From the NCBI GenBank assembly GCA_045539925.1, contig JAZQGH010000121.1, forward strand, positions 8,572 to 72,571: a stretch of 64,000 bases of DNA, read 5' to 3'. Positions 31,394-48,878 of the stretch are shown here, piece by piece. The notes beneath the pieces were generated by a model, which saw only the letters and a program-made list of their open reading frames with translations, had not been told where the DNA came from and did not search any database. Source of the DNA: Acutalibacteraceae bacterium. GTDB taxonomy: Bacteria > Bacillota > Clostridia > Oscillospirales > Acutalibacteraceae. Numbering within the stretch: position 1 is the stretch's first letter; each line of letters starts with the position of its first letter. A program made the position numbers and the translations under genes.

Positions 31394-31450
31394 AATGTAA
31401 ACCTTTCTTGTCATTTAGTCGGATTTGGCATACCCGACCTTGGTTTACGG

Positions 31451-32551: not shown

Positions 32552-32568
32552 AATATGTATTCCTTTTC

Positions 32569-33186
32569 TCAATAATTAATCGATTTTTGTCCTGTTTTGT
32601 TGTATCCGAAGCACTCGTGGTAGAGCTTTTTGCCCACGTAATCCTTATATCGGTAGCAGTCATATCGGTAAAACTCGTTCCAATAGCTGATCATCCTGGA
32701 GTGGCCGAGCTTGAAATAATCAAGATTAAGTGCGCAGAGAGCTTTATATTTTTCATTATTTTTCCCTTGAAGCTCGCGATAAACAACCTCAAGGATCTCT
32801 TTTACATATTCATCGCAAATTTTAATAACATACGGTATCGCATAATCAGGCAGATCCAAGCCCAGCATAGCTTCTATATGCTTTTGGCGAATATATCCGT
32901 CATAGCTTCTCGAAAAGATGCAATGATATATCAGCCTTTGACCTTCGGTCAATTTATCGGCTGAGACAGATACGTCATCAACGTATATACGATAAGGGAT
33001 CTTTATGCTTTGACCCGACGGAAGCCGCCATTTGGTACTTTTGTCGCTGATCAGCGCACCGCCGAATGCGAGACCTCTTGTTGACATAGCCTTAACAACC
33101 GTCTCCACGTCTGAGGCAAGCTCACACGGAAACGCAGGCAGAAGCGATCGGAGCAGCATATTTCTTTTTGTCCTGAAGAAAAGCAT
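32569..33186 (-). CDS. hypothetical protein (205 aa, Tyr/Cys-rich C-terminus), first gene of the operon ending in rtcB
   Basis: ORF with an AGGAGGG RBS 6 nt upstream of ATG. No recognisable motif. Confidence 0.5.
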   Translation of the reverse strand: MLFFRTKRNMLLRSLLPAFPCELASDVETVVKAMSTRGLAFGGALISDKSTKWRLPSGQSIKIPYRIYVDDVSVSADKLTEGQRLIYHCIFSRSYDGYIRQKHIEAMLGLDLPDYAIPYVIKICDEYVKEILEVVYRELQGKNNEKYKALCALNLDYFKLGHSRMISYWNEFYRYDCYRYKDYVGKKLYHECFGYNKTGQKSINY

Positions 33187-33473
33187 TCTATCCCTCCTTT
33201 TTATTGTTTTTGATCATTCATACAAAAGCAGCGGCTGAGGGCTTAAGTGCTCCCGTCTCGGTGCGGAAGGCTAAGCTCTGGCAAGGATAAGAGATACACG
33301 GTATCTGCACTCAGGCAGGGCTGCTTTTGTATTGCCGAGGCATAGGGATCTCTCCCCCTGCTCGGCCGAATGACGTGTATGAATATAACGTTCCCGCACG
33401 TGGGATCTCTCCTCACGTACCGTTATAAGCGCCTCAATGAAACAAATCCAAAACCTCCTGGCGATACGCTTTT

Positions 33474-33562
33474 TGCGCACGGTGGGATTCGAACCCACGA
33501 AAAAAATCGGCTGTGAACCGCTGCATGTCAGGCAGAAGCAAGCAACCTCCTTTGGCATACGC
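33474..33562 (-). other. tRNA-like 3' fragment (canonical T-arm GTGGG-TTCGAAT-CCCAC plus 7-nt acceptor 3' strand) lacking a foldable D-arm; pseudo-tRNA or att remnant
   Basis: Minus-strand sequence CGTGGGTTCGAATCCCACCGTGCGCA. An anticodon-like hairpin (CTGC-ctgacat-GCAG) lies upstream. A 7-T run sits where the variable loop would be. No D-stem pairing. Flanked by imperfect direct repeats GCGTATGCCAAAGGAGGTT and GCGTATCGCCAGGAGGTT. Confidence 0.3.
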
Positions 33563-33649
33563 TACGGAATATCCCCGCGCACCTCGGTGAAAAATACACT
33601 CGTCGAAAGCCCCTTGCAAATTCATTCTATCATCCTTTATATGCGTTTT

Positions 33650-33690
33650 CACGGAAAAAAAGCTGCGAACTCTTATCTGAGTCCGCAGTT
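33650..33690 (-). terminator. rho-independent terminator overlapping the stop of the WYL gene
   Basis: Minus-strand hairpin CTGCGGACTC-agataa-GAGTTCGCAG (one mismatch) followed by CTTTTTTTTCC. Confidence 0.5.
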
Positions 33691-34584
33691 TTTCTGTTTT
33701 TTTAGCTTTTTGATGACTAAATTCCTGAAATCCTCGGACTCCATCACCTCTACAAGAGGACCGAAGGAAAGGATCCTTATTACCATTTCAGGCTCGTCAT
33801 CGTGAGCATATTTAATTTTTATAAGATAATGCTTACGGTCAAGCTTCTCTGCCCTCTTTTCAAAATGGGCAAAATGAAGCATAAAACGCTCCAACGCGTT
33901 TCTCTCATCGGTAAGACGTACAGTCACCGTATCATACTTGACGTCGCGCTCGTGACCTGCAAGCTGCTTCTCACCATTGTAGTGATTGCAGTTTATGATC
34001 TTCGAAAGGTTGACCGTTCCGATTGAACGTCTGCCTGCCGTAACAAGCCTGAATTTATCATCCTTTTCGGAATACTCAAGCCTTACGGGATAGCATCTTA
34101 TATAGATCGGATTACCATTTCGGCTGATCATCTCAAAACGGATCTGCGTGTGATTTCGAATAGCCTCAAGAATCACTCTGAACTGTCTTATATATTCCTC
34201 GTCCTCATACGGATCGCCGTCGGAATATTTGTCGTAAACATAATAGTCCTCGGAGGTGAAAAGAGGCTCTACACCGTCAAGGTCGGGAAGCTCCACACCG
34301 AAAAGCCTGATTCTCGGATCGAGAGAAACGGCCTTCAGCCATCGCCTTTGCAGATTGGTGAGCGGCATTGTAGGCTTGTGCAGAAGGGGGGTGGTCATAT
34401 CGGGGCGAACAAGCTGCCACCTCTCGCTCTTAAGCGAGGGAATAACGGTAAGAGCGCTCTCCTCAAAGGCCTTTTCAGTGACTATTCTTTTAAGCTCCTT
34501 CTCCGAGCGCTCGCCGTCACAGATCCTCGACAGGATCGCGGCTACGGTGTTATAGTATGCTGAGTAAAGCTCGGAAAATATCAT
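33673..34584 (-). CDS. WYL-WCX domain transcriptional regulator (303 aa)
   Basis: N-terminal HTH-like segment. WYL beta-barrel region (NGNPIYIRCYPVRLEYSEKDDKFRLVTAG...NLSKI). C-terminal WCX-like MVIRILSFGPLVEVMESEDFR. ATGA overlap with the upstream WYL gene. Confidence 0.65.
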   Translation of the reverse strand: MIFSELYSAYYNTVAAILSRICDGERSEKELKRIVTEKAFEESALTVIPSLKSERWQLVRPDMTTPLLHKPTMPLTNLQRRWLKAVSLDPRIRLFGVELPDLDGVEPLFTSEDYYVYDKYSDGDPYEDEEYIRQFRVILEAIRNHTQIRFEMISRNGNPIYIRCYPVRLEYSEKDDKFRLVTAGRRSIGTVNLSKIINCNHYNGEKQLAGHERDVKYDTVTVRLTDERNALERFMLHFAHFEKRAEKLDRKHYLIKIKYAHDDEPEMVIRILSFGPLVEVMESEDFRNLVIKKLKKQKNCGLR

Positions 34585-35837
34585 TCCTCCACCTCCTCTA
34601 TACCGTACATTTTATACATCGCACGAAGATCGTCCTTAAATCTGTTTTCAATAGTACGGTTTGAAAAATTCATCTGCACAATACGGCAAATAAAGGTACG
34701 TATCCAGGGAATCATCTCGCTTGTGTCATAAACGTCAGCGACGAAGCGGTAGGTGTTATCGTCAATTTTCTCTACCCTGCCGACTCGCTTTTCTCTCTCA
34801 AGGCGGCGCACAATATATTCCTCTCCCTCGCCGACCCTTACAGTAAACTCCACGTGCTCCAGGTGATCGTGCCCCCATTTGCTGTGCTTTACGTTAACGC
34901 CCCACATCTTATCCTGCATTCGGTCAAGCTCCGCGCGAAGCTCGTCAAATCGAGGAGTCACCTCCTCAAGCCTTGCGTGCGAAAGATAGTCAAGGCGGTA
35001 TGCGTGAAAGGAGTTGAATTCGGGAATATAGGCGATAAGGTTCTGCCTGCCGTTCTGAACGCTTATGAGAATACGAAGAGGTATCAGGCGACAACGCCTC
35101 GGCATATCCTTTCTCTTCGCAAGATTGGATACGGTAACAGCCCGCTTTTCTCTCATAGCGGTGAAAAGCGTTGCCATAATGCCGCTGTCTATAGCACCTG
35201 TTATGTAGTGATGCTTGAAGGTAAAGTGATCCTCGTGATGCTCGCTCTTATCCAGAATGAAGGAGCCTATTACTCCGCAGGGCGCAACCTCCGAATAGTA
35301 ATGCAGAAGATCGTTAAGCTCGGAAACATCAACATCACGGGCTCTTCGATAGTATACCCTACGTCCCTCGCGCTCGGTAATGATAATACCCTCATCGGCG
35401 TATTCCTTAAGCTTTTTACGTACCGTAGACTCGTCAAACATCATCGGTGTCTTAAAGCCTGAGAGATATTTTTCGTCTACGTCCTCCATTATCTCCGACA
35501 AGGTGCGTCTGACGGTGGGATCGTGAAGAATATCGAAGATAATGAAATGAAGAGTAATGTCTCCGTCGGTAAAGCTCTTGGCCTTCCAGGCGTTATAAAG
35601 AGGGGTGTGGCTGATGCTTCTGCTATCGATGGAGATAAATACGTTCTTGCCCTCGGGAGTACGGACAAAGCTCATATGCGAGCCAAGCCAGCTGGCAATA
35701 CGGCGGCGCTCGTCATCGTAGGAGCGCGCACTTTTCCTACTGTAATCCTCGCGACTCTTGAAGCCGTAGACATAGAATTCACGCATATACGCGCGAATTC
35801 GCTCAAAGCTTTTAATAAGCTCGCTGTATGATGACAT
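34581..35837 (-). CDS. WYL-WCX domain transcriptional regulator (418 aa), tandem partner (PafB/PafC-like arrangement)
   Basis: wHTH N-terminus (YSELIKSFERIRAYMREFYVYGFKSREDY). WYL core CRLIPLRILISVQNGRQNLIAYIPEFNSFHAYRLDY. C-terminal WCX-like region. Start reassigned to MSSYSELIK with an AGAAAGGAG RBS. Confidence 0.65.
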   Translation of the reverse strand: MSSYSELIKSFERIRAYMREFYVYGFKSREDYSRKSARSYDDERRRIASWLGSHMSFVRTPEGKNVFISIDSRSISHTPLYNAWKAKSFTDGDITLHFIIFDILHDPTVRRTLSEIMEDVDEKYLSGFKTPMMFDESTVRKKLKEYADEGIIITEREGRRVYYRRARDVDVSELNDLLHYYSEVAPCGVIGSFILDKSEHHEDHFTFKHHYITGAIDSGIMATLFTAMREKRAVTVSNLAKRKDMPRRCRLIPLRILISVQNGRQNLIAYIPEFNSFHAYRLDYLSHARLEEVTPRFDELRAELDRMQDKMWGVNVKHSKWGHDHLEHVEFTVRVGEGEEYIVRRLEREKRVGRVEKIDDNTYRFVADVYDTSEMIPWIRTFICRIVQMNFSNRTIENRFKDDLRAMYKMYGIEEVEE

Positions 35838-35941
35838 ATTGCGCTCCTTTCTACCGTTATCCCAAGGGGAAAGGCGTGTTGTTTTTTGTGTTTTTGACAA
35901 CTATAGTTGTCATATTTGTCTTTTCAAGCCAAAACACGCGC

Positions 35942-38900
35942 TTATTTTTTGCGTTTAAAGACAAATCTTTGCACAAGGAAGCAGGCAAGAATGCTGAGGC
36001 CTGTGGGAAGAAATCCGAATGCCAGGGCATCCCAAATCGAATAAATATCGAAAATCATCCACTCAAAGATGTCGAGCTGAACAAACAGAAACATAGCAAA
36101 TTGCAGGAAAACAGCTCCCCAGATGAATCTGCCCGGCCACTTCGCAATTGGAAACAGCTTGCCTGAAATGCGTGAGTTTATAGCGAAGGGAATGATCGCA
36201 CTGAGCATGATCAAGACGTAATACTGAACAAAATCATAGCTCAATTCTATAAGCGGAAACAGTCCGGAAATAATACCGAATGCGGCGATTATGATCATGG
36301 CGATAATACCGACTATTTGCTTTGCAGTCGGCTTTTCCCTTACGCCAGCGAAGGCGACACTCTTCCTTACAAAGGGCTTTTGCCGAGCTTTTTGTGCTTT
36401 CTCGCGGCGGTTTTTCTTGCCGTCGGTATTTACGGAAGTATTTTTTGCAGAATGTGATACCTTTTTATTTTTCTCGGTCATCGTAGACTTTTTGCTTTCG
36501 GGAAGAGCAGTTTTTGCGGGGGTTACTTGTCTTGCAATTGTTTTTTCGCCCTGCTCGTCCCACGAGTTTCTTATCTTATCCCAAAAAGCAGACCTTGAGG
36601 CCTTTACAAAGGGGTCATTCTGGCTAAGATTATCAAAGAGGAGGATCTTTTTGGGAATGCCCAATGTGGTAGGATCGTTGACCAGATGAAGCTCGCCTCT
36701 TACCACGGAGTTCTTAAGCGTGGTTATCTTCAGGATTGAGACCATATTGTATGATATATTATAAAAGCAACCGTCAACACAGATAATAACATCGCGGCTC
36801 GACATAACAAAAGCATCATTATGTTTTTCAACCAGCTTGCCTTTAGTATACATTTCAAATGACCTGATGGCTTCATTTATGTTACCCGAACGATACCGGC
36901 ACTGACCCGCCTTAAATAAAGCAGTATTGCTTCTGGCAGAGATTGCCTTATAACATTTCAAGGCGTTGCCTGCGTCCTTTTTCTCCATATATGCATCGCC
37001 CATTTTTTCGATGCATTCGACAGTACGACCGTTAAGGTAATTTCCATTTACTTTATCTAATATACGAAGCGCCGCATCGTTATTTTTCTCATCGAAGCAC
37101 AATTGCAGAATGCCTTCTGCCAATTTATTATTATAGCTACCAAGGCGGTTGTACCAGATAAGAGCATTCTCGATATCTCTTTTATAGCAGTAAAGGGATA
37201 TCATTGTCTCTGCTGCGCGCGGATTTTTCTTTGTTTTCCAGCTTTTGGTTAACCATTTAACGGCTTCCTCGGATTGACCCTTGCTACGATAGAAGGAACC
37301 GATGGTCAGCATAAATTCGTCATCCTCTATCTCAACGCCTGCAACCTCGCACGCCTTAACAAAGGAATCCAAATTAAGATTCACGTTGGAATTAGAGGGG
37401 CGATCGATATTCTTCTGAACATCCGCGTAGCGTCCGTTCTTAGCATATGCGACCAACAGACAGAGCATATCCTTGATATATTCGTTTTTTGCTTGCGCAC
37501 CCCAATTTGAATTGGGATTTTTATGCTTAAGCTTGCTATCTAAGATTCTGATGGCCTCAAGTCCGCTGCCAACTCTTACACTCAAATCGCATATACGGGG
37601 CTCCAGATAACTCAGGTCCTTGGTGATGTACTTGATCATAGCATAATAGGAATATGCCTTTTTCTCTTCCCCTTTATCAAAATACCAATCTCCCAATCTG
37701 CAAATAATGGAAGTATCAGAATGAGCATTGCCGTCGATGTAACGGTCATACCATATTACAGCATCACCGCGCTTTCCGTTATTCCAGTAAATATGGCCGA
37801 TATCGAGTGCGACTCTCGGATTCTTTTCGGATTCCCATGCCCCGGCATACCAAACTATCGCATCGTCGAGCTTTCCGTTCTTTCGATAAATATTACCGAT
37901 CTCAAGCGCGGCGTTCGTATTCTTTTCAGATTCCCACGCTCTGCTATACCATTTAAGAGCCCTGTCATATTGCTCTGAAGAACGGTAACTTTCTGCCAGG
38001 ATCATTTCAAATCCGCGGTCGGAGCTCGACCACAGCTGCTCATAAAGGCGCTCTGCCTCGGTGTGGTTCTGATTTTCCAAATGATATCTGGCAATGATTT
38101 TAAGAAGGGGGACATTATCGGTATCCTTATCTGTCTCCGCCTTAATGCATATCTCTGCTACCTTATTGTCATTAACAGATTTGCATTTGGTAATGTAACC
38201 GATCATAAGCTTCTCAATGTCGGACCTGCGACCTGCCTTAAGGTACGAGTCCGCAACCGCAAATACTACCCTCGAGTATGCGCTGATCTCGCCTGGCGCA
38301 AGCTGGAGTTTATCATTGAGACTCAAATAGATCTCATAATATGGAATCGCTTCATTTTCTTTGCCGGTTGATGCGTAAAGATCGGCAAGGCGCAGGTTGA
38401 TATCAGCACTCTCGCCGGCCTTGGAAAGTCTATCATACCAAAGGACCGAATTTTCAAGATCACCCTTATCCAGATAATATTCAAGAATGCGCTCGATTAC
38501 CTTTTCGCTGAGCTTTTCATTCCCGTATTTCAGATACTCGCAAACAGCATCCTCCTTATGTCCCTTGGAATAAATAGCATCACCGAGCTTCATTGTCAGG
38601 CTCTTCAGCCTTGTCTTATATTCAGGTCCCTTGCCGCGAGCGATGTTCTCATCACGCTTTTTTTCATAAATGGGGATAATGCCTCTTATATCGCTCAAGC
38701 CTACGAGGTTGGGGGACTTTTTCTCAATTTCCTCAAAACAGCTTATGGCTTTTTCGGGATCGTTCTTTTTGTAATACTCCAGCAAGAATGAACACATTTC
38801 GTAGTTGTATTCCTCGCTGCAATACTCTGCGTAAAGCTCTTCGACAGCACCCGTATCGCCGCTGTTGTTATATATATTGCCAAGGAGAAGGTACCATACC

Positions 38901-39706
38901 TCTACAGCCTTAAGATCGCCTCTTTTTTTGTAGAGATCAATAACTGCGCGTGCGACAGATACCTTTTCTTCATCCGATAAGCAATTGTATTCTTTGTTTC
39001 GTGTGATGTTGCTGACAGCACGGACCCTTTCAATGCACTTATGCATTTTTTCTTCTGTGGTGCTATCGCTGTATTTAAGATAATAAATTAACGCCTCCAC
39101 GGGCTGATCGCAGGAGCAAAGAATATCTGCCATCTTGATGCCGAGCTCCTTATCTTCCTTGATGGAGAGAGCCTTTTTATATTGCTCTATAGCCTCGGAT
39201 CTCTTGCCTAGTGCCATATAGCAATCGCCCATGCCTGTTATTACGCGAGGGTCTGTATCCCGACTCTCACATTCGGAATAATGCCATAATGCTTCGTCGG
39301 GATCCTCAGAGGCAAGCATACCTGCAACGAAGATCCTCTGCTCATCCGAGAGAGGCTCTTTATCGGAGAACATATAGTTTTCCAATGCCATATCATCCTT
39401 AGAAAGCATACGATAGGCATCTCCGAGACGTGGAGCAGCACCATAGCTTTGCAGTCCCTCAAGCCAGCTTATGACATAGGTATAGCATTCGGAGTCGAAA
39501 AGCGTATTGGCAACCGAGAGTCTCTGCTTTACCGACAGAGAGCCAACGTCAGCATCCTCCGCATCGGTTGCAAGACGATAATACTCCGCCGCGCTCTTGA
39601 GATCATTTTCAGCACGGCATTCGTCGCCAAACTTAATATATCCGTCGAAGCCTATTTCGCCCTGCTCTGATGCTGCCGCGGCTTCGTTTTTCAAGATATC
39701 ATTCAT
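35942..39706 (-). CDS. giant Sel1/TPR-repeat protein (1254 aa) with C-terminal polytopic membrane anchor
   Basis: Many Sel1-like repeats (YSRAWESEKNTNAALEIGNIYRKNGKLDDAIVWYAGAWESEKNPRVALDIGHIY...). A basic linker, then ~5 hydrophobic helices at the C-terminus. GGAGG RBS. Confidence 0.7.
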   Translation of the reverse strand: MNDILKNEAAAASEQGEIGFDGYIKFGDECRAENDLKSAAEYYRLATDAEDADVGSLSVKQRLSVANTLFDSECYTYVISWLEGLQSYGAAPRLGDAYRMLSKDDMALENYMFSDKEPLSDEQRIFVAGMLASEDPDEALWHYSECESRDTDPRVITGMGDCYMALGKRSEAIEQYKKALSIKEDKELGIKMADILCSCDQPVEALIYYLKYSDSTTEEKMHKCIERVRAVSNITRNKEYNCLSDEEKVSVARAVIDLYKKRGDLKAVEVWYLLLGNIYNNSGDTGAVEELYAEYCSEEYNYEMCSFLLEYYKKNDPEKAISCFEEIEKKSPNLVGLSDIRGIIPIYEKKRDENIARGKGPEYKTRLKSLTMKLGDAIYSKGHKEDAVCEYLKYGNEKLSEKVIERILEYYLDKGDLENSVLWYDRLSKAGESADINLRLADLYASTGKENEAIPYYEIYLSLNDKLQLAPGEISAYSRVVFAVADSYLKAGRRSDIEKLMIGYITKCKSVNDNKVAEICIKAETDKDTDNVPLLKIIARYHLENQNHTEAERLYEQLWSSSDRGFEMILAESYRSSEQYDRALKWYSRAWESEKNTNAALEIGNIYRKNGKLDDAIVWYAGAWESEKNPRVALDIGHIYWNNGKRGDAVIWYDRYIDGNAHSDTSIICRLGDWYFDKGEEKKAYSYYAMIKYITKDLSYLEPRICDLSVRVGSGLEAIRILDSKLKHKNPNSNWGAQAKNEYIKDMLCLLVAYAKNGRYADVQKNIDRPSNSNVNLNLDSFVKACEVAGVEIEDDEFMLTIGSFYRSKGQSEEAVKWLTKSWKTKKNPRAAETMISLYCYKRDIENALIWYNRLGSYNNKLAEGILQLCFDEKNNDAALRILDKVNGNYLNGRTVECIEKMGDAYMEKKDAGNALKCYKAISARSNTALFKAGQCRYRSGNINEAIRSFEMYTKGKLVEKHNDAFVMSSRDVIICVDGCFYNISYNMVSILKITTLKNSVVRGELHLVNDPTTLGIPKKILLFDNLSQNDPFVKASRSAFWDKIRNSWDEQGEKTIARQVTPAKTALPESKKSTMTEKNKKVSHSAKNTSVNTDGKKNRREKAQKARQKPFVRKSVAFAGVREKPTAKQIVGIIAMIIIAAFGIISGLFPLIELSYDFVQYYVLIMLSAIIPFAINSRISGKLFPIAKWPGRFIWGAVFLQFAMFLFVQLDIFEWMIFDIYSIWDALAFGFLPTGLSILACFLVQRFVFKRKK

Positions 39707-39772
39707 TGCTTTACCTCCAAAATCTTATACTGTCTGTATGGCCCAAGATGGCCTATAGATCCGACGATGCGA

Positions 39773-42700
39773 TTATCTGCTCCTGCGAGCCTCGTTTCGT
39801 CTGTCGATCCATTTCTCCGCCCTCTCGGGGCTTTCTGTTCCCTTGTAATATCTGATCATATAATTAATGATTCCGGTATCTGTAAGTGAGCCCTCATCAG
39901 CGTATTTCTCATAGCATTCTACGGCTCTGACATCACCGCTTAAGCGATAGTAATTACCGAGATCGATAAGAAGCGAGACGTCGGGAAGTGTGCATCCGTA
40001 TTCGCTGTACCACGCGGAGAGCCTGTCCCATTTGTTGTATTCTCTGACATAGGAAATAATTCCCTCGGGAATTTTCTTGTACTCACCGCCACCGATAAGC
40101 TGCTCAAAAAGCCCGAAGGCTTCTTTGTTCCTGCCGCCTTTAATAAGCATTTCGCAGACGAATTCCAGCTTGTTAACGTCGGTAATGACGTCGAGGCACT
40201 TCATATACGTCTCAAAGGCCTTCTCATCCTCCTGCTCCTCCCGATAACAGTCTCCTATGCGCTCGGTTACGGTATCGTCATAGAAGAACTCGGTTGAGCA
40301 TTCAAGATAATTGGTGAGGGCGTCGGTATAATTTCCACGATCGTACCAGACGTCGGCAAGCTTTTTCTTTATTGAGGGGTCACCGGTCTCCTCTATGCAT
40401 TCCTTGTAAATCCTGATTGCGCCATCGACGTCATCGTTGGCATAATAGCAATCGGCTACTCTGCCTTTGAGCTTCGGATCGGTATCAACGTTTTTACATC
40501 TGCTGTAATACCCATAGGCCTCCCCGATCTTACCATCCTCAAGCAGATAGTCGGCTACTACTATCTTACGGTCATCGGGCAGCCTATCCGCCTCGACACC
40601 AAGATACTTTTCCACCGCCTCCTTACGCTTGCCGAGCATAAGATAACAGTCACCGCAATAAACGGCAGGCAAAATGTCCTCATCTGCTATTCTCTCAAAC
40701 CAGCTTATAGCCTCGGTGTAGTTCTTCTTATTCATATAATCCATACCCAACAGATAGCAGGGACGGTATTTATACATATTTTCCCTGTTGCTGCCATCCT
40801 TAGGCATGTAATCCTTGGCCAGAAGGAAATAATGAACCGCCTGCTTTTTATCCTCGACCTTGTCCGATTTACCATAGTAATTACCAAGATAAATGCAAGC
40901 ATTGAAGTTGGGATGCTTTTGAGACGCGGCCTTCGTATACCATTCCAGGGAGATCTTCTCATCCTGAGACTCGTAATAGCGCGCAAGCCTATACTGAGCA
41001 TCGGTATAATTGTTATCGGCGGACATCCTATAGTAGGCAAGGGCAATATCCATATTCTGCGTAAAGCCGATGCCTCTTTCATAATTAGACGCAAGTCTGT
41101 ACTGCGCCTTGCGGTCGCCCATATCGGCAGCCTTCTTAAGATAATCATTTGCAAGGACTATAAGATCCTCACTCTTTGTTTCCTTATATTGATTGAAATA
41201 GCTGTATCCCAGACTGCAGAATTCGGTGGCGCTTATGCTTCTGGACTTGTATTCCTTGATAAGCTCGCTGAGATTTACGTTGCTGTTAAGCTCGATCGCC
41301 TCGCTTACATCACGGTTCAGCAGATCCTCGTCCACGTATTTTGCAAAGCACATCTTGCCCTTGTAACCACCGTAGATCTGCTTCTTGTTGACAAGCTTAA
41401 AGCCCCAGGTCTTCTCAAAGCTCCTTACAAGGCTTTTCAGATGCTCTGCCTTTTTACTGAGCACATCCGCGCTGAAGGTGGGGTTATAATAATCGCGTAC
41501 AAAATGCTCAATATCTGCGGACATATCTATAATTCTCTCAAGCTGAGAATCAAGGATGATCTGGTCGTGCTTTTTTTCGTTAAGAGCGTGATTGAAGGCG
41601 TGCTTTGTCCAATATGTAAGCCCGTCTGTCTTTTTAAGATAAATACCGCAGGCCTCGAATTTTTCAAAGTTTTCGATATGACTGTCAATCTTAAGCGGCT
41701 TGATAGAATCAACGGCGCGGCACCTCTCAAACTCCTTATCAAAGGGAAGCATATATTTTATAAGAATGGTTTCCTTAAAGAGACTCTGATATTCCCATCT
41801 CTTGCTGTGTAGCTTAAGTCTGTCGATCTCCACACCATCCTTCAGCCTTGCAGAAAGCTGATCCATAGTCATACCCGTGGCGAGAAGCTTGTCTCTGTGC
41901 TCCTGCTGTGCATCTATAAGCTTGCAAAGCTGCAGGTATCTCTCATAAAATCTCTTGGGATGAGTGTTATTCAGAATGGCATTGATTGCCTTATCGTCTC
42001 GCTCTATCTTGCCGAGCCAACGCCTTACGTTACCCTCTATGCCCTGCTTCTCACCCGAGTATCGGCTTGCTATCTCCTCAAGATCCTCGGAGTCATATCT
42101 GCAGGGGTACTCCTCATCATATAAAATACGATACTCGTCAATATCGTTAAGCTGATCGTTGATGAGATCTATCAGCTCCTCTATCTCCCTTGAGGAACGT
42201 CCGGGCTGGTCGATTATTCCCTGTATTTTCTTCTCACGGAGTGTAAGGTTATCTATAAGCGCTTTCTTGGATGCGGTGCCGTCGTTGATAAGCCTGGATG
42301 CCATATTGCCCACCTCGGATGCCCAATCCTCGGAGCTCATAGAAACGGTAGGAATATCCCCCTTCTCGTCGGCCGCTTCGGTAACAAAGAGAAGCTTTTT
42401 TTCCTCCTCGGACTTCATCTCCGTATACTGCACCGTAAGGAAGCTCTTTTCCGCATCCTCTGCCGATTGACAGAAACAGATCATAAGGGAGGATGTACGC
42501 ATTGCAGCGAGAAGCTCGGGAGATGCATATGCAGTGCTGCCATTCAGACGGAAGGCCTCCACCGAGTACTGATCCATCTCGGTCATCTCATTGAGCAGAT
42601 CGATCGCCTGATCCTTGTATTTTCCCTCATATAGAATTACGACGTCGATCTCAGAGCTGTTTTCAAGAGCAGCATAGTATTTTTCAAGTGGGTCTGCTAC

Positions 42701-43162
42701 CTGCTCCTTTACGTCTCTGTAATCATTAAGAAGCTCATTTCTCTTTGTCGCATCGCCAATAGCCTTATACGTATCCTGAAGCTTTTCAAATATCTGATAT
42801 CCCTCAGAGGATTTCCAGGAATCCACGCTGTCATAGGCGTAATCATAGATAGCAATTCTGATATCCTCTTTTCCAAGCTCGAGAACGGCGTTGGAGTCGC
42901 ATTTAAGCTTCTCGGACACTAACAATAAATACTGCTCGGTGTCAGAGCCGCAGTCGGCGAGGATCTCAATAGCCTGAGACAGGTCAACGTCTGCAAAATT
43001 GCGAACAGCACGTCTGCCCATCGAGCGCTTGATAAGATCATCTGTCTTTTCAATAATGGCATACGCCGCGTCGGACATTTGCCTCAGATCGACGATCTGC
43101 TCCTCGTTCTCGACATCAGGACGTCTTATACCAATAATAGGTTCTGTCATCATTGCATCCAT
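39773..43162 (-). CDS. giant Sel1/TPR-repeat protein (1129 aa) with ~600-aa N-terminal domain of unknown function
   Basis: Sel1-like repeats in the C-terminal half (GDRKAQYRLASNYERGIGFTQNMDIALAYYRMSADNNYTDAQYRLARYYE). GAGGAG RBS. Confidence 0.7.
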   Translation of the reverse strand: MDAMMTEPIIGIRRPDVENEEQIVDLRQMSDAAYAIIEKTDDLIKRSMGRRAVRNFADVDLSQAIEILADCGSDTEQYLLLVSEKLKCDSNAVLELGKEDIRIAIYDYAYDSVDSWKSSEGYQIFEKLQDTYKAIGDATKRNELLNDYRDVKEQVADPLEKYYAALENSSEIDVVILYEGKYKDQAIDLLNEMTEMDQYSVEAFRLNGSTAYASPELLAAMRTSSLMICFCQSAEDAEKSFLTVQYTEMKSEEEKKLLFVTEAADEKGDIPTVSMSSEDWASEVGNMASRLINDGTASKKALIDNLTLREKKIQGIIDQPGRSSREIEELIDLINDQLNDIDEYRILYDEEYPCRYDSEDLEEIASRYSGEKQGIEGNVRRWLGKIERDDKAINAILNNTHPKRFYERYLQLCKLIDAQQEHRDKLLATGMTMDQLSARLKDGVEIDRLKLHSKRWEYQSLFKETILIKYMLPFDKEFERCRAVDSIKPLKIDSHIENFEKFEACGIYLKKTDGLTYWTKHAFNHALNEKKHDQIILDSQLERIIDMSADIEHFVRDYYNPTFSADVLSKKAEHLKSLVRSFEKTWGFKLVNKKQIYGGYKGKMCFAKYVDEDLLNRDVSEAIELNSNVNLSELIKEYKSRSISATEFCSLGYSYFNQYKETKSEDLIVLANDYLKKAADMGDRKAQYRLASNYERGIGFTQNMDIALAYYRMSADNNYTDAQYRLARYYESQDEKISLEWYTKAASQKHPNFNACIYLGNYYGKSDKVEDKKQAVHYFLLAKDYMPKDGSNRENMYKYRPCYLLGMDYMNKKNYTEAISWFERIADEDILPAVYCGDCYLMLGKRKEAVEKYLGVEADRLPDDRKIVVADYLLEDGKIGEAYGYYSRCKNVDTDPKLKGRVADCYYANDDVDGAIRIYKECIEETGDPSIKKKLADVWYDRGNYTDALTNYLECSTEFFYDDTVTERIGDCYREEQEDEKAFETYMKCLDVITDVNKLEFVCEMLIKGGRNKEAFGLFEQLIGGGEYKKIPEGIISYVREYNKWDRLSAWYSEYGCTLPDVSLLIDLGNYYRLSGDVRAVECYEKYADEGSLTDTGIINYMIRYYKGTESPERAEKWIDRRNEARRSR

Positions 43163-43189
43163 ATATTTTCTCCTCTGAAGATAGTTTTT

Positions 43190-45103
43190 TTAGTCTGTCA
43201 CCTCCGCGGAAGCAACAAGTTGTACCTCATCTGCACAAGGGCCGTTATAATTTCTTCCCATCACGAAGGAAACCCTGGCACCGATTACAAATCCTTTGTC
43301 ATCTCCCTTTACCTGGAAATAAATACCTTTTTTATCCTGCGGCCTGTCGGGATTTCTGATAAATCCATATTTGCTCTCGGGGTTATATTTCATTATTACG
43401 CTCTCGCGTCCGGGCTTCTGCTTGCCGATAGGTGATACAGGCTTTGCCACCTCGGTCTTTACGGGCTGAGGCTTAGGCTCCGTATAGGCTTTGGCGGTGT
43501 CATCCGCCTTATCAAGATAAGCCTTGACATCATCAAGCGACTTGAATCTGATCTCGGGAATCCTGACGTAAAGTGCCTGAAGATCCTTTTCAAGCTTCCT
43601 TCCGTCTGAGAAGAAACGAGTGAGCTTGTCATCCGAGCCTGATTCCCTCTCGACAAAATTCTTGTCGATCCTGCCGTCCTCAAGCATTTTCAAAAGCATT
43701 TCATCTCTGGTGACGTAGTAGTTTTTGATTCCATCGGTCAGATCATACTGATCCACGCCCCATTCGTGAAGTTTTCTTGCATTTTCTCTGATTATTTCGG
43801 CATTCTTCTTTCTCTCGGCATCGCTCATTATGATTAACCTGTTTTCATTATGAATGAAGGCATTGGTGCTCGAGTAAATGCCCGCAAGCTCATCGTCATG
43901 TGCAGCAGGCTTTGACGATGCGAACTTCTGCTTCACCTTCTCTCCGGGGGAGAACAGGAGACCGTCGGTAAGCTTGATTCCCTTCTTGAATCGGCAATAC
44001 AGCTCAATGCAGGCGCGGATCTTAAGCTGTGCGGACTGAATATCCGCGGGATTTCTGGAAAGGTGATGCTCAACCTCCTTAACGATATCGCCGGTCGTAT
44101 CCCCACGAAGCGCAGAAAGATATGCGGTATTCGCAAGCAGCTCGTCAAGCTGCGCCTGATTTCTCTCCGCCTGCCTTTTCTGCTCGCCGCGAAGATCTTT
44201 TATAAGTCCCTCAAGATCGGTAATTTTTCTCATTACCTGAAGCATCGCCACGTTAAGCTCATCCTTCGGCATAGCCTTGACTGAGTCTTCATAATCCTTG
44301 GCATCGCTTCTGTAAAGTCTCTCGAGAAGAGTCTCCTCAATTGCCCTCCTGAAGTCGGTATCGTCGATCTCCGCCATAAATGGGCTGTCTGATACCTCCC
44401 CTGCAATTCTATCAATAGCCTCAAGCTCGGCGAACAGCTCGCCCTCCAGCTCCTTGTTCTCCATAACAAGATCGCTGTACTCATCGGCGCCCATGGTGAT
44501 TCCCGCCATAGCGCTCTCGGTGGACCGCCTTCTCTCAACCGCGCTGCTGATGGAGACGTTAGCCTTGTTCATTCTATGAAGCTTTGAAAGCTCGGATTTC
44601 TTATCCTTAAGACCGGACAAAAGTCCGCTGTGCTCGGATACAAGAGCCATATATCTTGCGGAGTCGGTGGGGTAATTGTTGATAATCCATTCCTCCTCTA
44701 TTGCCTTGATACGCTTCTCGGTCTCCTCTATCTCTGTGGTGATTCCCTTGATCTTAATACGGCCTTCCATAGCCTTATCCTTACCGGCCTCATAATCCGC
44801 GTCGAATTTGTTGCTTTCAAGAAGGTAGCTCCTTACGTGATCGTGAACTCGCTCGGCGTAGAGCTCGAAAGAATCGGGATTCTTCACCGCCTTGTTTATG
44901 TATTCCTGAATTCTTAAAAGCACATCCGAATAGTCGGAAAGAGTCTCATCGGTGGCAGAGCGAATAACGGCAATGTCCTCCTTAAGCATGCGAAGAGCGT
45001 TTACCGAAACATCGGTTATCTCAAGTCGCTCAACTATTTTGTCTGACGCTGTTTCTATATTGAGAACCATTTCTCTTACATCGGTCTTTGTCTTATTCCA
45101 CAT
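43190..45103 (-). CDS. coiled-coil protein (637 aa) with C-terminal cold-shock-like OB-fold domain
   Basis: About 560 aa of charged heptad-like sequence. Last ~65 aa match the CSD pattern (VIMKYNPESKYGFIRNPD...KGIYFQVKG...GARVSFVMGRNYNGPCADEV, compare VKWFNxxKGFGFI...VFVHFS...G..V.F). AGGGAG RBS. Confidence 0.6.
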   Translation of the reverse strand: MWNKTKTDVREMVLNIETASDKIVERLEITDVSVNALRMLKEDIAVIRSATDETLSDYSDVLLRIQEYINKAVKNPDSFELYAERVHDHVRSYLLESNKFDADYEAGKDKAMEGRIKIKGITTEIEETEKRIKAIEEEWIINNYPTDSARYMALVSEHSGLLSGLKDKKSELSKLHRMNKANVSISSAVERRRSTESAMAGITMGADEYSDLVMENKELEGELFAELEAIDRIAGEVSDSPFMAEIDDTDFRRAIEETLLERLYRSDAKDYEDSVKAMPKDELNVAMLQVMRKITDLEGLIKDLRGEQKRQAERNQAQLDELLANTAYLSALRGDTTGDIVKEVEHHLSRNPADIQSAQLKIRACIELYCRFKKGIKLTDGLLFSPGEKVKQKFASSKPAAHDDELAGIYSSTNAFIHNENRLIIMSDAERKKNAEIIRENARKLHEWGVDQYDLTDGIKNYYVTRDEMLLKMLEDGRIDKNFVERESGSDDKLTRFFSDGRKLEKDLQALYVRIPEIRFKSLDDVKAYLDKADDTAKAYTEPKPQPVKTEVAKPVSPIGKQKPGRESVIMKYNPESKYGFIRNPDRPQDKKGIYFQVKGDDKGFVIGARVSFVMGRNYNGPCADEVQLVASAEVTD

Positions 45104-45115
45104 GATGATACTCCC

Positions 45116-45676
45116 TTAAAACTTAAATCTGTGTTTATTTAGTTGCTTTGGCTGCTGAGTCTGATTGCTTGCAACCTTTGTCTTTATATCCACTCTATCA
45201 ATCAGCATTCCAAGATCCTTGATAAAATGCTCGCGGAAGAAGATCATAAGCTCCCTCTCGAGCAGCTCGCATGCATTGCCGCCGAAGAATGCAGCCTCGT
45301 TGGTAATGGATCTGTCGGCGAGAAATTTGGTTATTAGGTTTGTAGCCGCCGTCATACCTTCCCATTCAAGGATCAGATCGGGCATTTTTGCCTTAAGCAG
45401 ACGACTGTTATTAATAACGATAGTCGGAAAAGCAACGTGTGCGATCACCAAAAAGGTGAAGGAGATATTACCGCGATCGTAGAAAAGCTCGAAGCTGTTC
45501 TCGCCCTCGTCTACAAAATACCACTCTGCACCCTCGTGGGAAAGCGGATAAGTGCCTCCACCCCTTATAAGGCCACTCACGCGTCCGTTCTCAACCGAGA
45601 CAAGCAATTCGTTGTTGTCAAGCTTGAAGGAGGCTCTGTTTTTTGGAATTTTGTAAGCGATCTTCGAGTTTCTCAT
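45116..45676 (-). CDS. hypothetical protein (186 aa)
   Basis: ORF with a GAGGAG RBS. No motif recognised. Confidence 0.5.
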   Translation of the reverse strand: MRNSKIAYKIPKNRASFKLDNNELLVSVENGRVSGLIRGGGTYPLSHEGAEWYFVDEGENSFELFYDRGNISFTFLVIAHVAFPTIVINNSRLLKAKMPDLILEWEGMTAATNLITKFLADRSITNEAAFFGGNACELLERELMIFFREHFIKDLGMLIDRVDIKTKVASNQTQQPKQLNKHRFKF

Positions 45677-45770
45677 AATCTGCTCCTCAATGATTTAAAA
45701 GTAGTTATTTAAAGTATTATATCATATTCAGTCGAATTTTACAATACATTTGGCCATTTACACGAAATAA

Positions 45771-46907
45771 TTAGAGCTGTCCTGCTCTATAGCGCTCTAT
45801 TCCGGCGAGATCCTCCGCTCTTACCGAGCTTCTTGTGTGGCTCAGCACGCTTGCAACGTCATCATTAGTGATAAGCTCGGCGCCGCCTTCACCTATGATT
45901 CGCTCAATGGCCCGATCCTTCATTCTCTCGCAGGCATTGACTATATCCGCTCCGCTGAAGCCATCCGTCTTTTCGACGATCATTTCTATATCCAGATCGG
46001 CAGCACTGGGAACCTTGGATATCACCGAGTCGATTATCGCCCGCCTTGCCGCAGCGTCGGGCAGAGGAATATGAACTGAAATGCTGAACCTTCCGGGACG
46101 GAGGAAGGCGGAATCGATATCCCAGGGACGGTTGGTGGCGGCAATTACTATCAGGGTGTTCTCACTCTCCTCGGCGTTCTGAATTCCTACCAGAAGCTCG
46201 GGGATTATTCGCTTCATTGATGAGGAGTCGGTGTCGCGCTTAGTGCCGAGAGCATCAAACTCATCGAAGAAAATTACCGACGTCTTATGCTTTGCTGCCT
46301 CATCAAAGAGCGCCTTCACGTTCTGCTCTGCCTCGCCAAACCATTTAGATAGGATGTCAGAGCATTTCACCTGAAAAAAGCTGGCGCCAAGCTCGTTTGC
46401 AATGGCGTTTGCGATCATGGTTTTGCCCGTTCCGGGAACTCCGTAGAGGAGAATTCCGGCATTTTTCTTTTTCTTGAATTTTTCATAGATCTCGGGATGC
46501 TGTCTGGGATAAATCGCAAGCCGCCTTATCTCCTCCTTCACCTCATCGAGGCCGATAACGTCATCGAAGGTTATTCGCTTTGCATCTGTGGTAGCAAATC
46601 CCGACTCCTCGCTCTCCCCTGCCTCCGACTGAGAGCTTTGCTCCTCGCTTTCCTCGTTAAGCTCGGGCGCATTTATCTCGCCGACCTTCATCTCGACAGC
46701 CTCAGCGAGGGCGATCATCTCATCGGCTCTCGAAATCATTTTAGCCCTTGCCTCGCCCCTCAGCTCCTTGGCAATGAGAATGGCGTTTTCCGCCGTGGAA
46801 TAGAAATATTTGATCGCTCTCTCGGGCTTGCCGCCGTTCAGCGAACGAATTCCGCTGTCATAGTAGGTGTTAAAAAGCTCGTATAGAAATTTCAGACTGT
46901 CACTCAT
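45771..46907 (-). CDS. Vps4-like AAA+ ATPase with N-terminal MIT-like domain
   Basis: MIT-like three-helix N-terminus (AIKYFYSTAENAILIAKELRGEARAKMISRADEMIALAEAV). Acidic linker. Walker A GVPGTGKT, Walker B VIFFDEFD, SRH ATNRPWDIDSAFLRPGRF. AGGAGG RBS. Start overlaps the stop of the upstream gene. Confidence 0.8.
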   Translation of the reverse strand: MSDSLKFLYELFNTYYDSGIRSLNGGKPERAIKYFYSTAENAILIAKELRGEARAKMISRADEMIALAEAVEMKVGEINAPELNEESEEQSSQSEAGESEESGFATTDAKRITFDDVIGLDEVKEEIRRLAIYPRQHPEIYEKFKKKKNAGILLYGVPGTGKTMIANAIANELGASFFQVKCSDILSKWFGEAEQNVKALFDEAAKHKTSVIFFDEFDALGTKRDTDSSSMKRIIPELLVGIQNAEESENTLIVIAATNRPWDIDSAFLRPGRFSISVHIPLPDAAARRAIIDSVISKVPSAADLDIEMIVEKTDGFSGADIVNACERMKDRAIERIIGEGGAELITNDDVASVLSHTRSSVRAEDLAGIERYRAGQL

Positions 46908-47491
46908 ACTCCCGCCTCCTTTATCCTGCTCCTTATGAGCTGTATTTTTGCATCCAGCGCCGCGCCGTCTGTGTCCTTGTCGCTATCACCGATCATCTGC
47001 TCAAGCTCGCTATCGAGAGCCACGTCCTCACCCGCATAGCCCAGCCGATTAAGCGAAAGATCCTCGTAAAGAGTGTTGTAAAAATCAATGGTTCGCTCCA
47101 CGCCGCCCATTGCCTCCTTGTAGTTTTTTAACAGGGTGTGGGGGTTGCCTGCGATCGAATGCTGCTTTTTCAGGGCATCCATACAGGAGCTGTAGCTCTC
47201 TACCATTCTATCCATATTATCAAGCTGTAGGGCGATCTCAAGCTGAGTAAGCATTTCGGAAACGAGCCTTGTGTTTACAAGACATACAGAAAGCCTCTTC
47301 TTAAGCGACCTGTATGCATCCTCATCGCCTCTGTCCTTCGCCTTTCTTGCCAGCGAGATGATCTTGTTTTTCTCCCTTTCAAGCTGCTCGATGGAATACT
47401 CCATCATTCCGATGGTTCGGAAAACCTGATATCGGATATTTCTCTTGTCATCCTTCGCGGGTCTCCCATCGTCTCTTGTGCTTTTAAGCAT
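46904..47491 (-). CDS. Snf7/ESCRT-III-family protein (195 aa)
   Basis: Basic N-terminal helices similar to CHMP2/Vps2 (EQLEREKNKIISLARKAKDRGDEDAYRSLKKRL versus KLETQEKKIIADIKKMAKQGQMDAVRIMAKDL). Acidic C-terminal half. Terminal amphipathic helix ALDAKIQLIRSRI in the MIM position. AAGGAGGA RBS. First gene of the operon. Confidence 0.65.
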   Translation of the reverse strand: MLKSTRDDGRPAKDDKRNIRYQVFRTIGMMEYSIEQLEREKNKIISLARKAKDRGDEDAYRSLKKRLSVCLVNTRLVSEMLTQLEIALQLDNMDRMVESYSSCMDALKKQHSIAGNPHTLLKNYKEAMGGVERTIDFYNTLYEDLSLNRLGYAGEDVALDSELEQMIGDSDKDTDGAALDAKIQLIRSRIKEAGV

Positions 47492-47783
47492 GCTTTTTTC
47501 CTCCTTGATCTGCTGATTTCCGGTCGTTGTTTTCGTTTTTTACATCCTTATTATAACACGCAAAAGCGGAACATTGTTATGTCTGCTTTCAAAAATACTT
47601 TGTTCCGTTTTAAGGGTTTTTCTTGTGTTTTTCTTTGTTTTGTGTTCCTCTAAAAAGAACAAATCAGCCATTTTGCCGAAAATTTATGAAAATTCAGCAC
47701 TTTTTAAATTATTTTGTTCCGTTTATCTTTACTTTTACGGAAAAAGATGCTATAATAAGTTCATATTTTAAAGGAGGGCTGAT
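47492..47783. promoter_or_regulatory. divergent promoter region with three copies of a GTTCCG(C/T)TT motif
   Basis: Minus-strand extended -10 TGtTATAAT (~47544-47552) for the ESCRT operon, with an inverted motif copy CGGAAC at the -35 position (~47563-47570). Direct copies TTGTTCCGTTT at ~47592 and ~47716. Plus-strand -10 TATAAT at ~47746 and RBS AAAGGAGGG for the divergent WYL gene. Confidence 0.4.
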
Positions 47784-48878
47784 ATGGGATTCTTTATTAA
47801 TGAAATAACCTATGAGCTGAAGCAGCATCTCAACCTTTCGGAGGGCGCGTGGGATGTGATCTATAACGATATGAACAGCTTCTTCGGTGAGGCGGGAAAG
47901 CAATCCTTCTCGGGCTTTCTCAACCGTGTGTTCTATAATTTCTATCAGCAGGCCGAGGGTAGCGTTAGGCTGCAGGGCGAGAGGCTGAAGGAGGAGCTTA
48001 AGGCTCTTGTTAATAGAAACGGTGAGATTTTCCGAGACGAAGAGGGCGCAGGGCAGACGGTCAGGCTGCTGGTAGATGAATATGAAAAAAGAGCCCTGAA
48101 GAAGGCTACCTCCTATCCCAAGGGAATAGGCAAAAAGTTCAGGGTGAACAGGCAGAATCTTGACGTGCTGAGAGACCTGGACTGTGCGGATATGTACGAC
48201 GACTCTATCGGCGCATATATGAAGGCGGTGTTTGAGGAATATACCACCCTTCCTCAGGCGAAGAGAGAGGCAATATTCTTCAAGGACACCATAGATGCCT
48301 GCAATTTCGCTATCTCAAAGCGCAACAAGCTGAAGATCAGCCTGAGTCAGAGGTTCTCCGCAAGGAGGCAGGAAAGCTATACCAGGCGGTTTTACGTTTC
48401 GCCATACGCGGTGGTGGTGGATAAAAACGGCTTTTTCAACTACCTTATAGGCATATCCGAGGAGATCCGCCGAGACGGTACGCTTGACGAGAAAAGGATC
48501 ACCAGCTTCCGTATTTCGAGAATCGAAAAGATCTCGATCATGAGCAGTATGAGTGGATTTTTATCAAGTCAGAAAATCGACGAAATAGAATGCGAGCTTA
48601 AGACAAAATCGCCCCAATATATGGCGGGTGAGATATCTGAGATCGAGGTGCTGTTTACAGCTAAGGGTCTGGAGCTTTTCGAGCGCCAGTTATATTTACG
48701 GCCTACCGTATACACGAAAATCGGTACAAACCGCTATTTATTCCATTGCACCGAGATGCAGGCAATACACTATTTTTTCAAGTTCGGTCGTGACGCGCAG
48801 ATAGTAAGCCCGACTCATCTGAGGGAGAGATTTATCAGCTATTACAGAGAGGCTCTGGCGGCCTACGAAAAGGAATAA
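47784..48878 (+). CDS. WYL-WCX domain protein (364 aa), divergent from the ESCRT-like operon
   Basis: WYL-like core RRFYVSPYAVVVDKNGFFNYLIGI...EKRITSFRISRIEKI. WCX-like C-terminus FKFGRDAQIVSPTHLRERF. The N-terminal 200 aa are not an obvious HTH. Confidence 0.6.
   Translation: MGFFINEITYELKQHLNLSEGAWDVIYNDMNSFFGEAGKQSFSGFLNRVFYNFYQQAEGSVRLQGERLKEELKALVNRNGEIFRDEEGAGQTVRLLVDEYEKRALKKATSYPKGIGKKFRVNRQNLDVLRDLDCADMYDDSIGAYMKAVFEEYTTLPQAKREAIFFKDTIDACNFAISKRNKLKISLSQRFSARRQESYTRRFYVSPYAVVVDKNGFFNYLIGISEEIRRDGTLDEKRITSFRISRIEKISIMSSMSGFLSSQKIDEIECELKTKSPQYMAGEISEIEVLFTAKGLELFERQLYLRPTVYTKIGTNRYLFHCTEMQAIHYFFKFGRDAQIVSPTHLRERFISYYREALAAYEKE

Follow-up and report, generated by a model that had tools for sequence, protein, structure and literature searches.

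Do bacteria pair an ESCRT-III protein with a Vps4-type ATPase? Recent syntheses deny them such a partnership, and according to one of these papers a Vps4-like ATPase "appears absent in bacteria" (PMC7619361). The question is raised by a locus in a 64-kb stretch of DNA from an Acutalibacteraceae bacterium, a gut bacterium of Clostridia type (contig JAZQGH010000121.1 of assembly GCA_045539925.1), the whole of which we call the window. An initial annotation, made from the sequence alone, had described there eight co-directional minus-strand genes (g1 to g8) as a single operon linking an ESCRT-III/Vps4 pair to six other genes. We found that a Snf7-family protein with a MIM1-type tail (g1) is paired with a MIT-AAA ATPase (g2), and that the conserved core of the locus consists of three genes, not eight: g1, g2 and u1, a plus-strand gene divergent from g1. 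The latter had been missed by the initial annotation; it encodes a third WYL protein and is the best-conserved partner of g1-g2. The coordinates of all features are given in Table 1.

That g1 is a Snf7-family ESCRT-III protein is supported by four lines of evidence, i.e. its predicted fold, the links of its family to Pfam Snf7, a MIM1-type helix and gene linkage. In g1, a basic N-terminus leads into an alpha1/alpha2 hairpin, after which come an acidic linker and, at the C-terminus, a MIM1-like helix (LDAKIQLIRSRIKE). In an alignment-based AF2 model, a long alpha1/alpha2 hairpin (predicted local distance difference test, pLDDT, 85-93) is followed by a shorter helix, the linker, which is disordered, and two C-terminal helices; a long hairpin followed by shorter helices is the fold of ESCRT-III proteins. 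Every one of the best 16 Foldseek matches of this model in the PDB belongs to the ESCRT-III superfamily, and CHMP2A/3, Asgard ESCRT-IIIB, Vipp1, CHMP1B, Shrub and Snf7 are among them. An exhaustive profile search yielded 515 representatives of the g1 family at E <=1e-3. Of the close family members, 7 of 56 matched Snf7 (PF03357), as did 18 of 95 distant ones, with a best E of 4e-6, and one fused member (P0319) scored 27.3 bits, which equals the gathering score. Each of the other Pfam families was matched by one protein at most among the 95 distant members; the families listed for these 56 and 95 members do not include PspA_IM30 (PF04012), which had no match in g1 either. As for the tail, the MIM1 consensus is (D/E)xxLxxRLxxL(K/R). 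All six of its positions fall into conserved columns of the g1 family (49-56 of 56 sequences), and g1 of the window retains LxxKIxxIR. The name "Snf7-like" given in the initial annotation is thus upheld by fold and family, not by a direct sequence match.

The N-termini of main-clade relatives of g1 combine a short hydrophobic motif with a polybasic run behind it (e.g. MDLFGIKKRK), which resembles the membrane-insertion motifs of ESCRT-III proteins. The motif was lost in the subclade of the window, which has an anchor of four transmembrane (TM) helices on a TPR protein. In some family members the Snf7-like domain is fused to FtsK/SpoIIIE translocase ATPases, in others to RuvB-like AAA+ modules with a NERD or TnsA-like nuclease after them. 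The fused proteins are P0227, P0235, P0242, P0246, P0256, P0282, P0312 and P0319 (loci L033/L034), and an LRR_5 gene precedes the gene for the Snf7-RuvB-NERD fusion.

The start codon of g2 overlaps the stop codon of g1 by 4 nt. Its product comprises a three-helix MIT fold (residues 1-79), a low-complexity linker and one classical AAA cassette (Pfam AAA, E 1e-41, plus AAA_lid_3). The N-terminal 80 residues were modelled as a three-helix bundle with a pLDDT of 95, and MIT domains dominate its Foldseek matches (TM-score 0.65-0.8, probability 1.0), including those of VPS4A/B, yeast Vps4, Sulfolobus CdvC bound to CdvB, NRBF2, MITD1 and katanin. To judge by its motifs, the single AAA cassette is active and bears a substrate-threading pore loop: Walker A (GVPGTGKT), pore loop (SKWFGE), Walker B (FFDEFD), sensor (AATN) and RPGRF arginine fingers are all intact.

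The initial annotation had called g2 "Vps4-like". This is right for the architecture, a MIT fold joined to a single AAA cassette, and wrong if orthology is meant, the cassette being CDC48-D2-like. The NCBIfam CdvC equivalog gave 189.5 bits vs a cut-off of 650 (CDC48 scores 196), which is no better than the CDC48, PAN or FtsH scores of g2. Pfam found no Vps4_C match and there is no beta-domain; the lid is colinear with that of p97 D2 (53 bits, vs 27 bits for katanin). The second region of homology reads D[ST]AFLRPGRF in 92 of 101 family members, not as in the meiotic clade, and its RPGRF arginine-finger region is, as we take it, of the CDC48/FtsH type. According to Makarova et al., Vps4 itself stems from Cdc48.

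To assess linkage, 14 loci carrying a g1-family gene were compared. In 12 of them g1 is followed immediately by the MIT-AAA gene, and the contigs of the other two end at g1. In two loci (L028, L029), the ATPase has two AAA domains and keeps the MIT domain. In 13 of the 14 loci a u1 homologue stands close to g1, a few genes away at most and usually divergent (E 1e-47 to 1e-211); u1 is far better conserved than g1, with about 270 bits where g1 keeps about 30. The ESCRT pair is linked as the initial annotation had assumed, and the remaining six genes are not conserved with it family-wide; the proposed eight-gene unit thus shrinks to g1-g2, to which the overlooked u1 is added. The system is carried by Bacillota (gut and rumen Eubacteriales, Lachnospiraceae, Oscillospiraceae, Bacilli) and by bacteria of Mollicutes type (Liberiplasma, Acholeplasma, Haloplasmataceae); Liberiplasma polymorphum, a cultured species, belongs to the latter. 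In 185,579 species representatives 21 loci with u1 were detected, only some of which have g1. Neither the g1 family nor u1 was found on cultured phages, plasmids or in IMG/VR, where only two weak WYL matches, in Fusobacterium, appeared.

The u1 protein matches WYL1, the Cas13d accessory protein (PDB 6OAW), in full length (E 8.8e-19, residues 16-364 on 26-390) and has the same order of ribbon-helix-helix, WYL and dimerisation domains; its Pfam WCX/WYL matches are weak. The ribbon-helix-helix strand K-x-H-L-N-L-S is invariant among the homologues. Unlike for WYL1, neither Cas13d nor any CRISPR element was seen in the loci compared, including beside the u1 homologues. Genes of the u1 type also flank operons without g1, some of them with other AAA ATPases and kinase/VWA pairs (L011-L027), which makes u1 a member of a broader family of regulators. 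L027 carries two tandem copies of the u1 homologue.

On the minus strand, GGAACA recurs three times in the region between u1 and g1 (47720-47715, 47648-47643, 47606-47601), and an inverted copy lies at 47573-47568. The inverted copy abuts the g1 promoter, whose extended -10 (TGTTATAAT, of TGnTATAAT type, about 47555-47550) ends at about 47550. The strong ribosome-binding site (RBS) of g1 is AAGGAGG; the u1 promoter lies at 47728-47756 on the plus strand. Exact ACGGAACAAA occurs in only two copies in the window, both in this intergenic region. The offsets of the GGAACA motif are the same in L007 and L009, and AGGAACA/AGGTACA variants are present in further loci (L010, L016, L021, distant Mollicute loci). 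We regard the repeats as candidate u1 operators. Conserved operator-like repeats at u1 suggest that it acts as a transcription factor and does not stimulate a nuclease as WYL1 does. In lying divergent from or adjacent to their presumed target genes, the WYL genes of this locus resemble WYL regulators of defence (CapW/BrxR, PafBC, DriD). In L008 (2449-3648), a close relative, a 317-aa gene is inserted between u1 and g1 and splits the compact divergent control region.

How does this core compare with known systems? With the ESCRT-III and Vps4 proteins of archaea and eukaryotes (CdvB/CdvC; Snf7/CHMP) it shares a hairpin protein with a MIM1-type helix, encoded beside an ATPase that consists of MIT domain, linker and a single AAA cassette with an aromatic pore loop; here the two genes are translationally coupled. 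It differs from them by its bacterial hosts (Bacillota, Mollicutes), by the features of the AAA cassette (CDC48-D2-like, RPGRF fingers, no Vps4_C or beta-domain, a score far below the CdvC cut-off), by the lack of ESCRT-I/II or CdvA partners, by presumed WYL control and by its own set of partners, namely proteasome-like, SPFH-like, TPR-TM, TIR, LRR and kinase genes.

The closest prior art is a comparative genomic study of PSP systems (PMC11237479; section 18, Table S3), which described dyads of a bacterial MIT+Vps4-AAA protein and a TPR+TM protein in other phyla, with Snf7 "displaced" (for example Opitutus ACB74714.1), as well as some associations of PspA or Snf7-TM proteins with other AAA+ proteins. 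Like these dyads, the window has a MIT-AAA ATPase in one operon with a large TPR protein bearing a C-terminal multi-TM anchor, and action near the membrane is suggested for both. In contrast to the dyads, in which the MIT-AAA gene is adjacent to that of the TPR multi-TM protein and Snf7 is absent, a Snf7-family gene is present here as a constant partner, and the TPR-TM gene is three genes away from the ATPase and restricted to a small subclade. Its product has four TM helices vs six in the dyad. The association of PspA with a two-AAA protein in the same study (AEY64321.1) was considered as an equivalent of the g1 family and set aside, as it has another gene order and a true PspA. The associations of that study do not include the triad of Snf7-family protein, MIT-AAA ATPase and WYL1-like regulator found here. 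No description of this triad was found in the literature, our coverage of which is incomplete, so an earlier description is possible.

PspA/Vipp1 systems, including PspA-YdjGHI of B. subtilis with its SPFH protein YdjI, likewise place an ESCRT-III-superfamily protein in stress-type operons. Main-clade relatives of our locus come close to them in having a Band_7_1 (YdjI-type SPFH) gene just downstream of the ATPase, together with coiled-coil or zinc-ribbon genes. However, members of the g1 family match Snf7, with PspA_IM30 absent from the families listed for them, PspA systems have no MIT-AAA partner (the AAA+ protein PspF, of sigma54 type, is of another kind), and g3 of the window has no detectable SPFH similarity.

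We propose that the whole is a WYL-gated, inducible membrane-remodelling module of conflict or stress type, a proposal to which we give about half of our belief. Its interactions and its physiological role we infer from the folds, motifs, gene linkage, a gene fusion and the footprints, as follows. Judging from the footprints, u1 would bind the GGAACA repeats, including the one abutting the g1 promoter, and keep the operon off. Its WYL domain might sense a ligand, by analogy a nucleic-acid fragment, upon which repression would be lifted. As other ESCRT-III proteins do, g1 would then polymerise on the inner face of the membrane. The motifs and folds suggest that the MIT domain of a g2 hexamer binds the MIM1-type helix at the C-terminus of g1 and that the hexamer threads g1 through the KWFG pore loop, thereby turning over or remodelling the polymer. 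In the window and about three relatives, g5/g6 would form one TPR/Sel1 scaffold tethered by the 4-TM anchor, and g3-g4 an adaptor with a nucleic-acid-binding cold-shock domain, which could localise or trigger the polymer together with g5/g6. The pair g7-g8 would be a separately promoted and probably autoregulated WYL unit found only here. The variable immune-type partners and WYL control point to an inducible role in conflict or stress, such as remodelling or repair upon attack, and not to housekeeping.

In a wider sense, and with somewhat less confidence than the module itself, Bacillota and wall-less Mollicutes might hold a working ESCRT-III/Vps4-type machine wired to WYL nucleic-acid sensors and immune-type partners (TIR, LRR, kinase/VWA, nuclease, proteasome-like), in which the MIT-AAA ATPase would take the Snf7-family polymer apart by way of a MIM1-MIT contact and, in the genome studied here, g4 and g5/g6 would be recruiters like CdvA or ESCRT-I/II. 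If so, a family with no fewer than 515 sequence clusters that spans gut Clostridia, Bacilli and Mollicutes would bear on the origin of the ESCRT-III/ATPase partnership, which could be ancient, horizontally transferred or the result of convergent recruitment of a CDC48-type motor. It would also offer a minimal bacterial system in which to study ESCRT-III turnover, and add to the bacterial conflict systems a class of membrane effectors under WYL control that has so far gone unrecognised.

Several observations weigh against the remodelling module. As for g1, the protein itself gave no significant direct match in Pfam, NCBIfam, PADLOC or PDB sequences (in the last, the best phmmer matches were designed TIM barrels and nothing meaningful), the Foldseek E-values are modest (0.014 or higher), and the window protein lacks both the first acidic residue of MIM1 and the hydrophobic and polybasic N-terminal motif of the main clade. 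As for g2, Pfam MIT did not match its N-domain (26 N-terminal fragments), a PDB profile search of the MIT region reached E 0.16 at best (2MPK), and with a CDC48-like AAA module the protein could act as a general unfoldase; this ATPase is accompanied by proteasome-like genes in nine loci. Finally, PADLOC-DB v2 found no system in the window, only generic IetA/TRIP13 (AAA) and WYL/Csa3 matches and a weak CSD_V one, and g1, g3, g5 and g6 were without any match. The last result agrees with the initial annotation, in which the combination was not recognised as any named system. A membrane-directed, possibly defence-type role, which the initial annotation had listed among its candidates, is reasonable, and no known defence system is supported.

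An unlikely alternative is abortive infection. Upon phage sensing, the Snf7-like polymer and the TPR-4TM protein would damage or permeabilise the membrane and thus kill or arrest the cell, the AAA ATPase would be an activator or a safety catch, and the WYL proteins would keep the system silent. The three WYL-type regulators fit this, as comparable ones control defence systems such as CBASS (PMC9122588), and so do the patchy distribution and the immune-type neighbours and fusions (TIR, LRR, NERD, TnsA-like, PD-(D/E)XK, DUF2357). The farther neighbours of the core are variable; apart from Ser/Thr kinase and VWA pairs, LRR, TIR, Sel1, DUF2357 and PD-(D/E)XK, they comprise Csm6-like, colicin V and trypsin-like protease genes (the last in L032). 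However, no recognisable toxin is encoded in the cluster of the window, PADLOC yields nothing beyond generic AAA and WYL matches, and the known roles of ESCRT-III are repair and scission rather than lysis.

Less probable again is an unfolding and proteolysis machine, in which the CDC48-like MIT-AAA protein would unfold clients, g1 would be its adaptor or substrate and proteasome- or trypsin-like peptidases would degrade them, the window version having lost its peptidase. This is based on the proteasome-family genes (PF00227, E 9e-11) located just upstream of g1 or beside an AAA gene in nine loci (L010, L013, L015, L016, L019, L020, L021, L028 and L029), in some of them between u1 and g1 and in L020 as four tandem copies. 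The trypsin-like protease of L032 and the closeness of the AAA module to CDC48 D2, PAN and FtsH agree with it. Nevertheless, peptidase genes are absent from the window and from L003, L005, L007-L009, L017, L030 and L031, an HbYX proteasome-docking tail was looked for on the family ATPases and not found, and the conserved MIM-MIT pairing and the SPFH-like partners suit a membrane polymer better.

Turning to g3-g8, these genes are lineage-specific, and g3-g6 are confined to about four close genomes. Both g3 and g4 were seen only in the window, L007, L008 and L009, besides a g4 homologue in L030; the gene preceding the latter aligns weakly though colinearly with g3, which is possibly present there too. 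We also considered g3 as a divergent SPFH protein; this was dropped after hhalign against the Band_7_1-like C8 proteins proved negative. A comparison of g4 with the C9 coiled-coil proteins by hhalign was negative as well. The coiled coil with a C-terminal cold-shock OB fold, which had been assigned to g4, stands: CSD (PF00313) is the best match in all three g4 orthologues over the whole profile (E 2e-3, 2.7e-2 and 7e-5), a call that is consistent yet below threshold (PDB 5XV9 has E 0.5, and PADLOC CSD_V is weak). The two giants had both been called Sel1 proteins. This applies to g5, a Sel1/TPR protein, and not to g6, which is a TPR protein. The polytopic anchor predicted for g6 was recovered as four C-terminal TM helices (residues 1131-1245), preceded by a juxtamembrane beta-rich domain and a polybasic linker; by TM prediction g6 is the sole membrane protein of the cluster. 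In L002, equivalents of g5 and g6 are fused in one protein of 2127 aa, including the juxtamembrane domain and TM anchor; its C-terminus, likewise with about four TM helices, can be aligned with the C-terminal part of g6. This fusion suggests that g5 and g6 act as one scaffold.

The tandem WYL regulators g7 and g8 are marginal in Pfam and have lower E-values with the PADLOC WYL model. For g7, Pfam gave WYL at 21.6 bits vs a cut-off of 21.8 and WCX at 18.2 vs 23.9, PADLOC WYL had E 5e-11, and an ArsR-type HTH was recognised by NCBIfam. For g8, PADLOC WYL had E 2e-10, Pfam WCX was weak and no HTH was detectable; neither protein matched any PDB sequence. As a tandem pair, probably of winged helix-turn-helix/WYL/WCX type, they are reminiscent of PafB/PafC. 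The gap between g6 and g7 contains a candidate promoter (TTGAAA, 16-nt spacer, TATAGT; 35927-35900), and a perfect 18-bp palindrome, TGACAACTATAGTTGTCA (35895-35912), unique in the window, lies over its -10. This palindrome is probably the operator of g7/g8. Its position over the -10 indicates that g7 starts at ATG 35837, which is served by an AAAGGAG RBS, and not at TTG 35900. With a promoter and palindrome of their own, g7-g8 are probably a separate, autoregulated unit, with possible read-through from g6. They had no homologue in any of the other loci compared, and in L002, a relative of 59% identity, the gene after the TPR giant is convergent, so that an equivalent of g7-g8 is lacking there.

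These data also bear on whether an eight-gene system exists at all. We think it improbable, slightly more so than the proteolytic machine, that g3-g8 are unrelated neighbours co-oriented with g1-g2 by chance. It is true that g7-g8 are served by a promoter of their own and show no linkage conserved elsewhere, and that g3-g6 occur only in close genomes whose synteny extends to unrelated flanking genes. On the other hand, there is no terminator between g2 and g8, gaps are tight and RBSs coupled, a g4 homologue stands again beside the pair in the distant L030, and the g5+g6 fusion and the MIT-AAA/TPR-TM dyads of other phyla (PMC11237479) tie the TPR-TM scaffold to the ATPase.

The least probable reading is a housekeeping role in division, vesicle budding or sporulation, analogous to archaeal Cdv, for which the presence in wall-less Mollicutes-type bacteria, where membrane scission matters, and the beta-barrel and coiled coil of g4, loosely reminiscent of CdvA, might be quoted, and which is opposed by the rare and patchy occurrence (21 u1 loci among the species representatives, some with g1), by the presence of FtsZ and FtsA in one carrier genome, and by highly variable accessory genes and WYL control, which point to an inducible, dispensable system.

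Table 1. Features of the ESCRT-III-like locus, in order of position in the window.
Feature	Coordinates	Strand	Description
Intrinsic-terminator-like hairpin	33663..33688	-	10 pairs, 6 GC, then T-run; overlaps g8 stop codon
g8	33673..34584	-	Probable WYL-WCX protein, 303 aa; start overlaps g7 stop by 4 nt
g7	34581..35837	-	Probable wHTH-WYL-WCX regulator, likeliest 418 aa from ATG 35837; open reading frame reaches TTG 35900
Candidate g7-g8 promoter	35895..35927	-	TTGAAA, 16-nt spacer, TATAGT
g6	35942..39706	-	TPR protein, 1254 aa; Pfam TPR families E 1e-23
g5	39773..43162	-	1129 aa; C-terminal half Sel1 (Pfam E 9e-17) and TPR, N-terminal 650 aa without assigned family
g4	43190..45103	-	Helical/coiled-coil protein, 637 aa; Pro/Lys linker, C-terminal cold-shock-like OB domain (about 567-630)
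g3	45116..45676	-	186-aa protein; no Pfam, NCBIfam or PADLOC family match
g2	45771..46907	-	MIT-domain AAA ATPase, 378 aa; Pfam AAA and AAA_lid_3, MIT fold by model
g1	46904..47491	-	Snf7-family ESCRT-III protein, 195 aa; predicted fold, family Snf7 matches, MIM1-like tail
Divergent control region u1/g1	47492..47783		GGAACA repeats, two promoters
u1	47784..48878	+	WYL1-like regulator, 364 aa; N-terminal ribbon-helix-helix, WYL, C-terminal dimerisation/WCX domain

As for the layout, most of what the initial annotation had stated was reproduced. The open reading frame listing returned the eight minus-strand genes at precisely the same coordinates; the gaps from g1 to g8 are -4, 94, 12, 27, 66, 41 and -4 nt (104 nt between g6 and g7 if g7 starts at ATG 35837), and a Shine-Dalgarno sequence of GGAGG/AGGAG/GAGG type precedes every gene. 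The terminator hairpin placed over the last stop codon was recovered, and the terminator scan of the window gave none between g2 and g8. Testing upheld the key domain calls, apart from Sel1 in g6; Snf7 in g1 is supported by fold and family evidence. Of the "one promoter", the site upstream of g1 was found, and further promoter-like sites are located in the g2-g3 gap (45744-45716, by promoter scan) and the g6-g7 gap. The locus had also been described as GC-richer and compositionally distinct. This does not hold, its GC content being 46.5% vs 45.2% (20-33.7 kb) and 45.3% (48.9-64 kb) in the adjacent flanks and its tetranucleotide distances unremarkable; the argument from composition for horizontal acquisition was therefore rejected. 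The true compositional outlier of the window is the segment 1-8000, with a GC content of 0.355-0.376 and the highest tetranucleotide distance. Rfam and tRNA scans of the window found nothing.

Past the terminator (30185-33672), a 205-aa gene without known family (32569-33186) shares 4 nt with an SPFH/Band_7 gene (31451-32572); a gene for RtcB RNA ligase (30185-31414) comes next. The gap of 486 nt before the 205-aa gene holds only a doubtful Cys/Arg-rich open reading frame of 95 aa. These three genes may form a second unit, perhaps under the control of g7/g8. On the other side of the locus, genes for a 190-aa protein (48950-49522) and for a protein of 1479 aa that has a hydrophobic segment near its N-terminus and belongs to no Pfam family (49717-54156) are syntenic with L007 only, and are therefore probably unrelated surface-protein neighbours.

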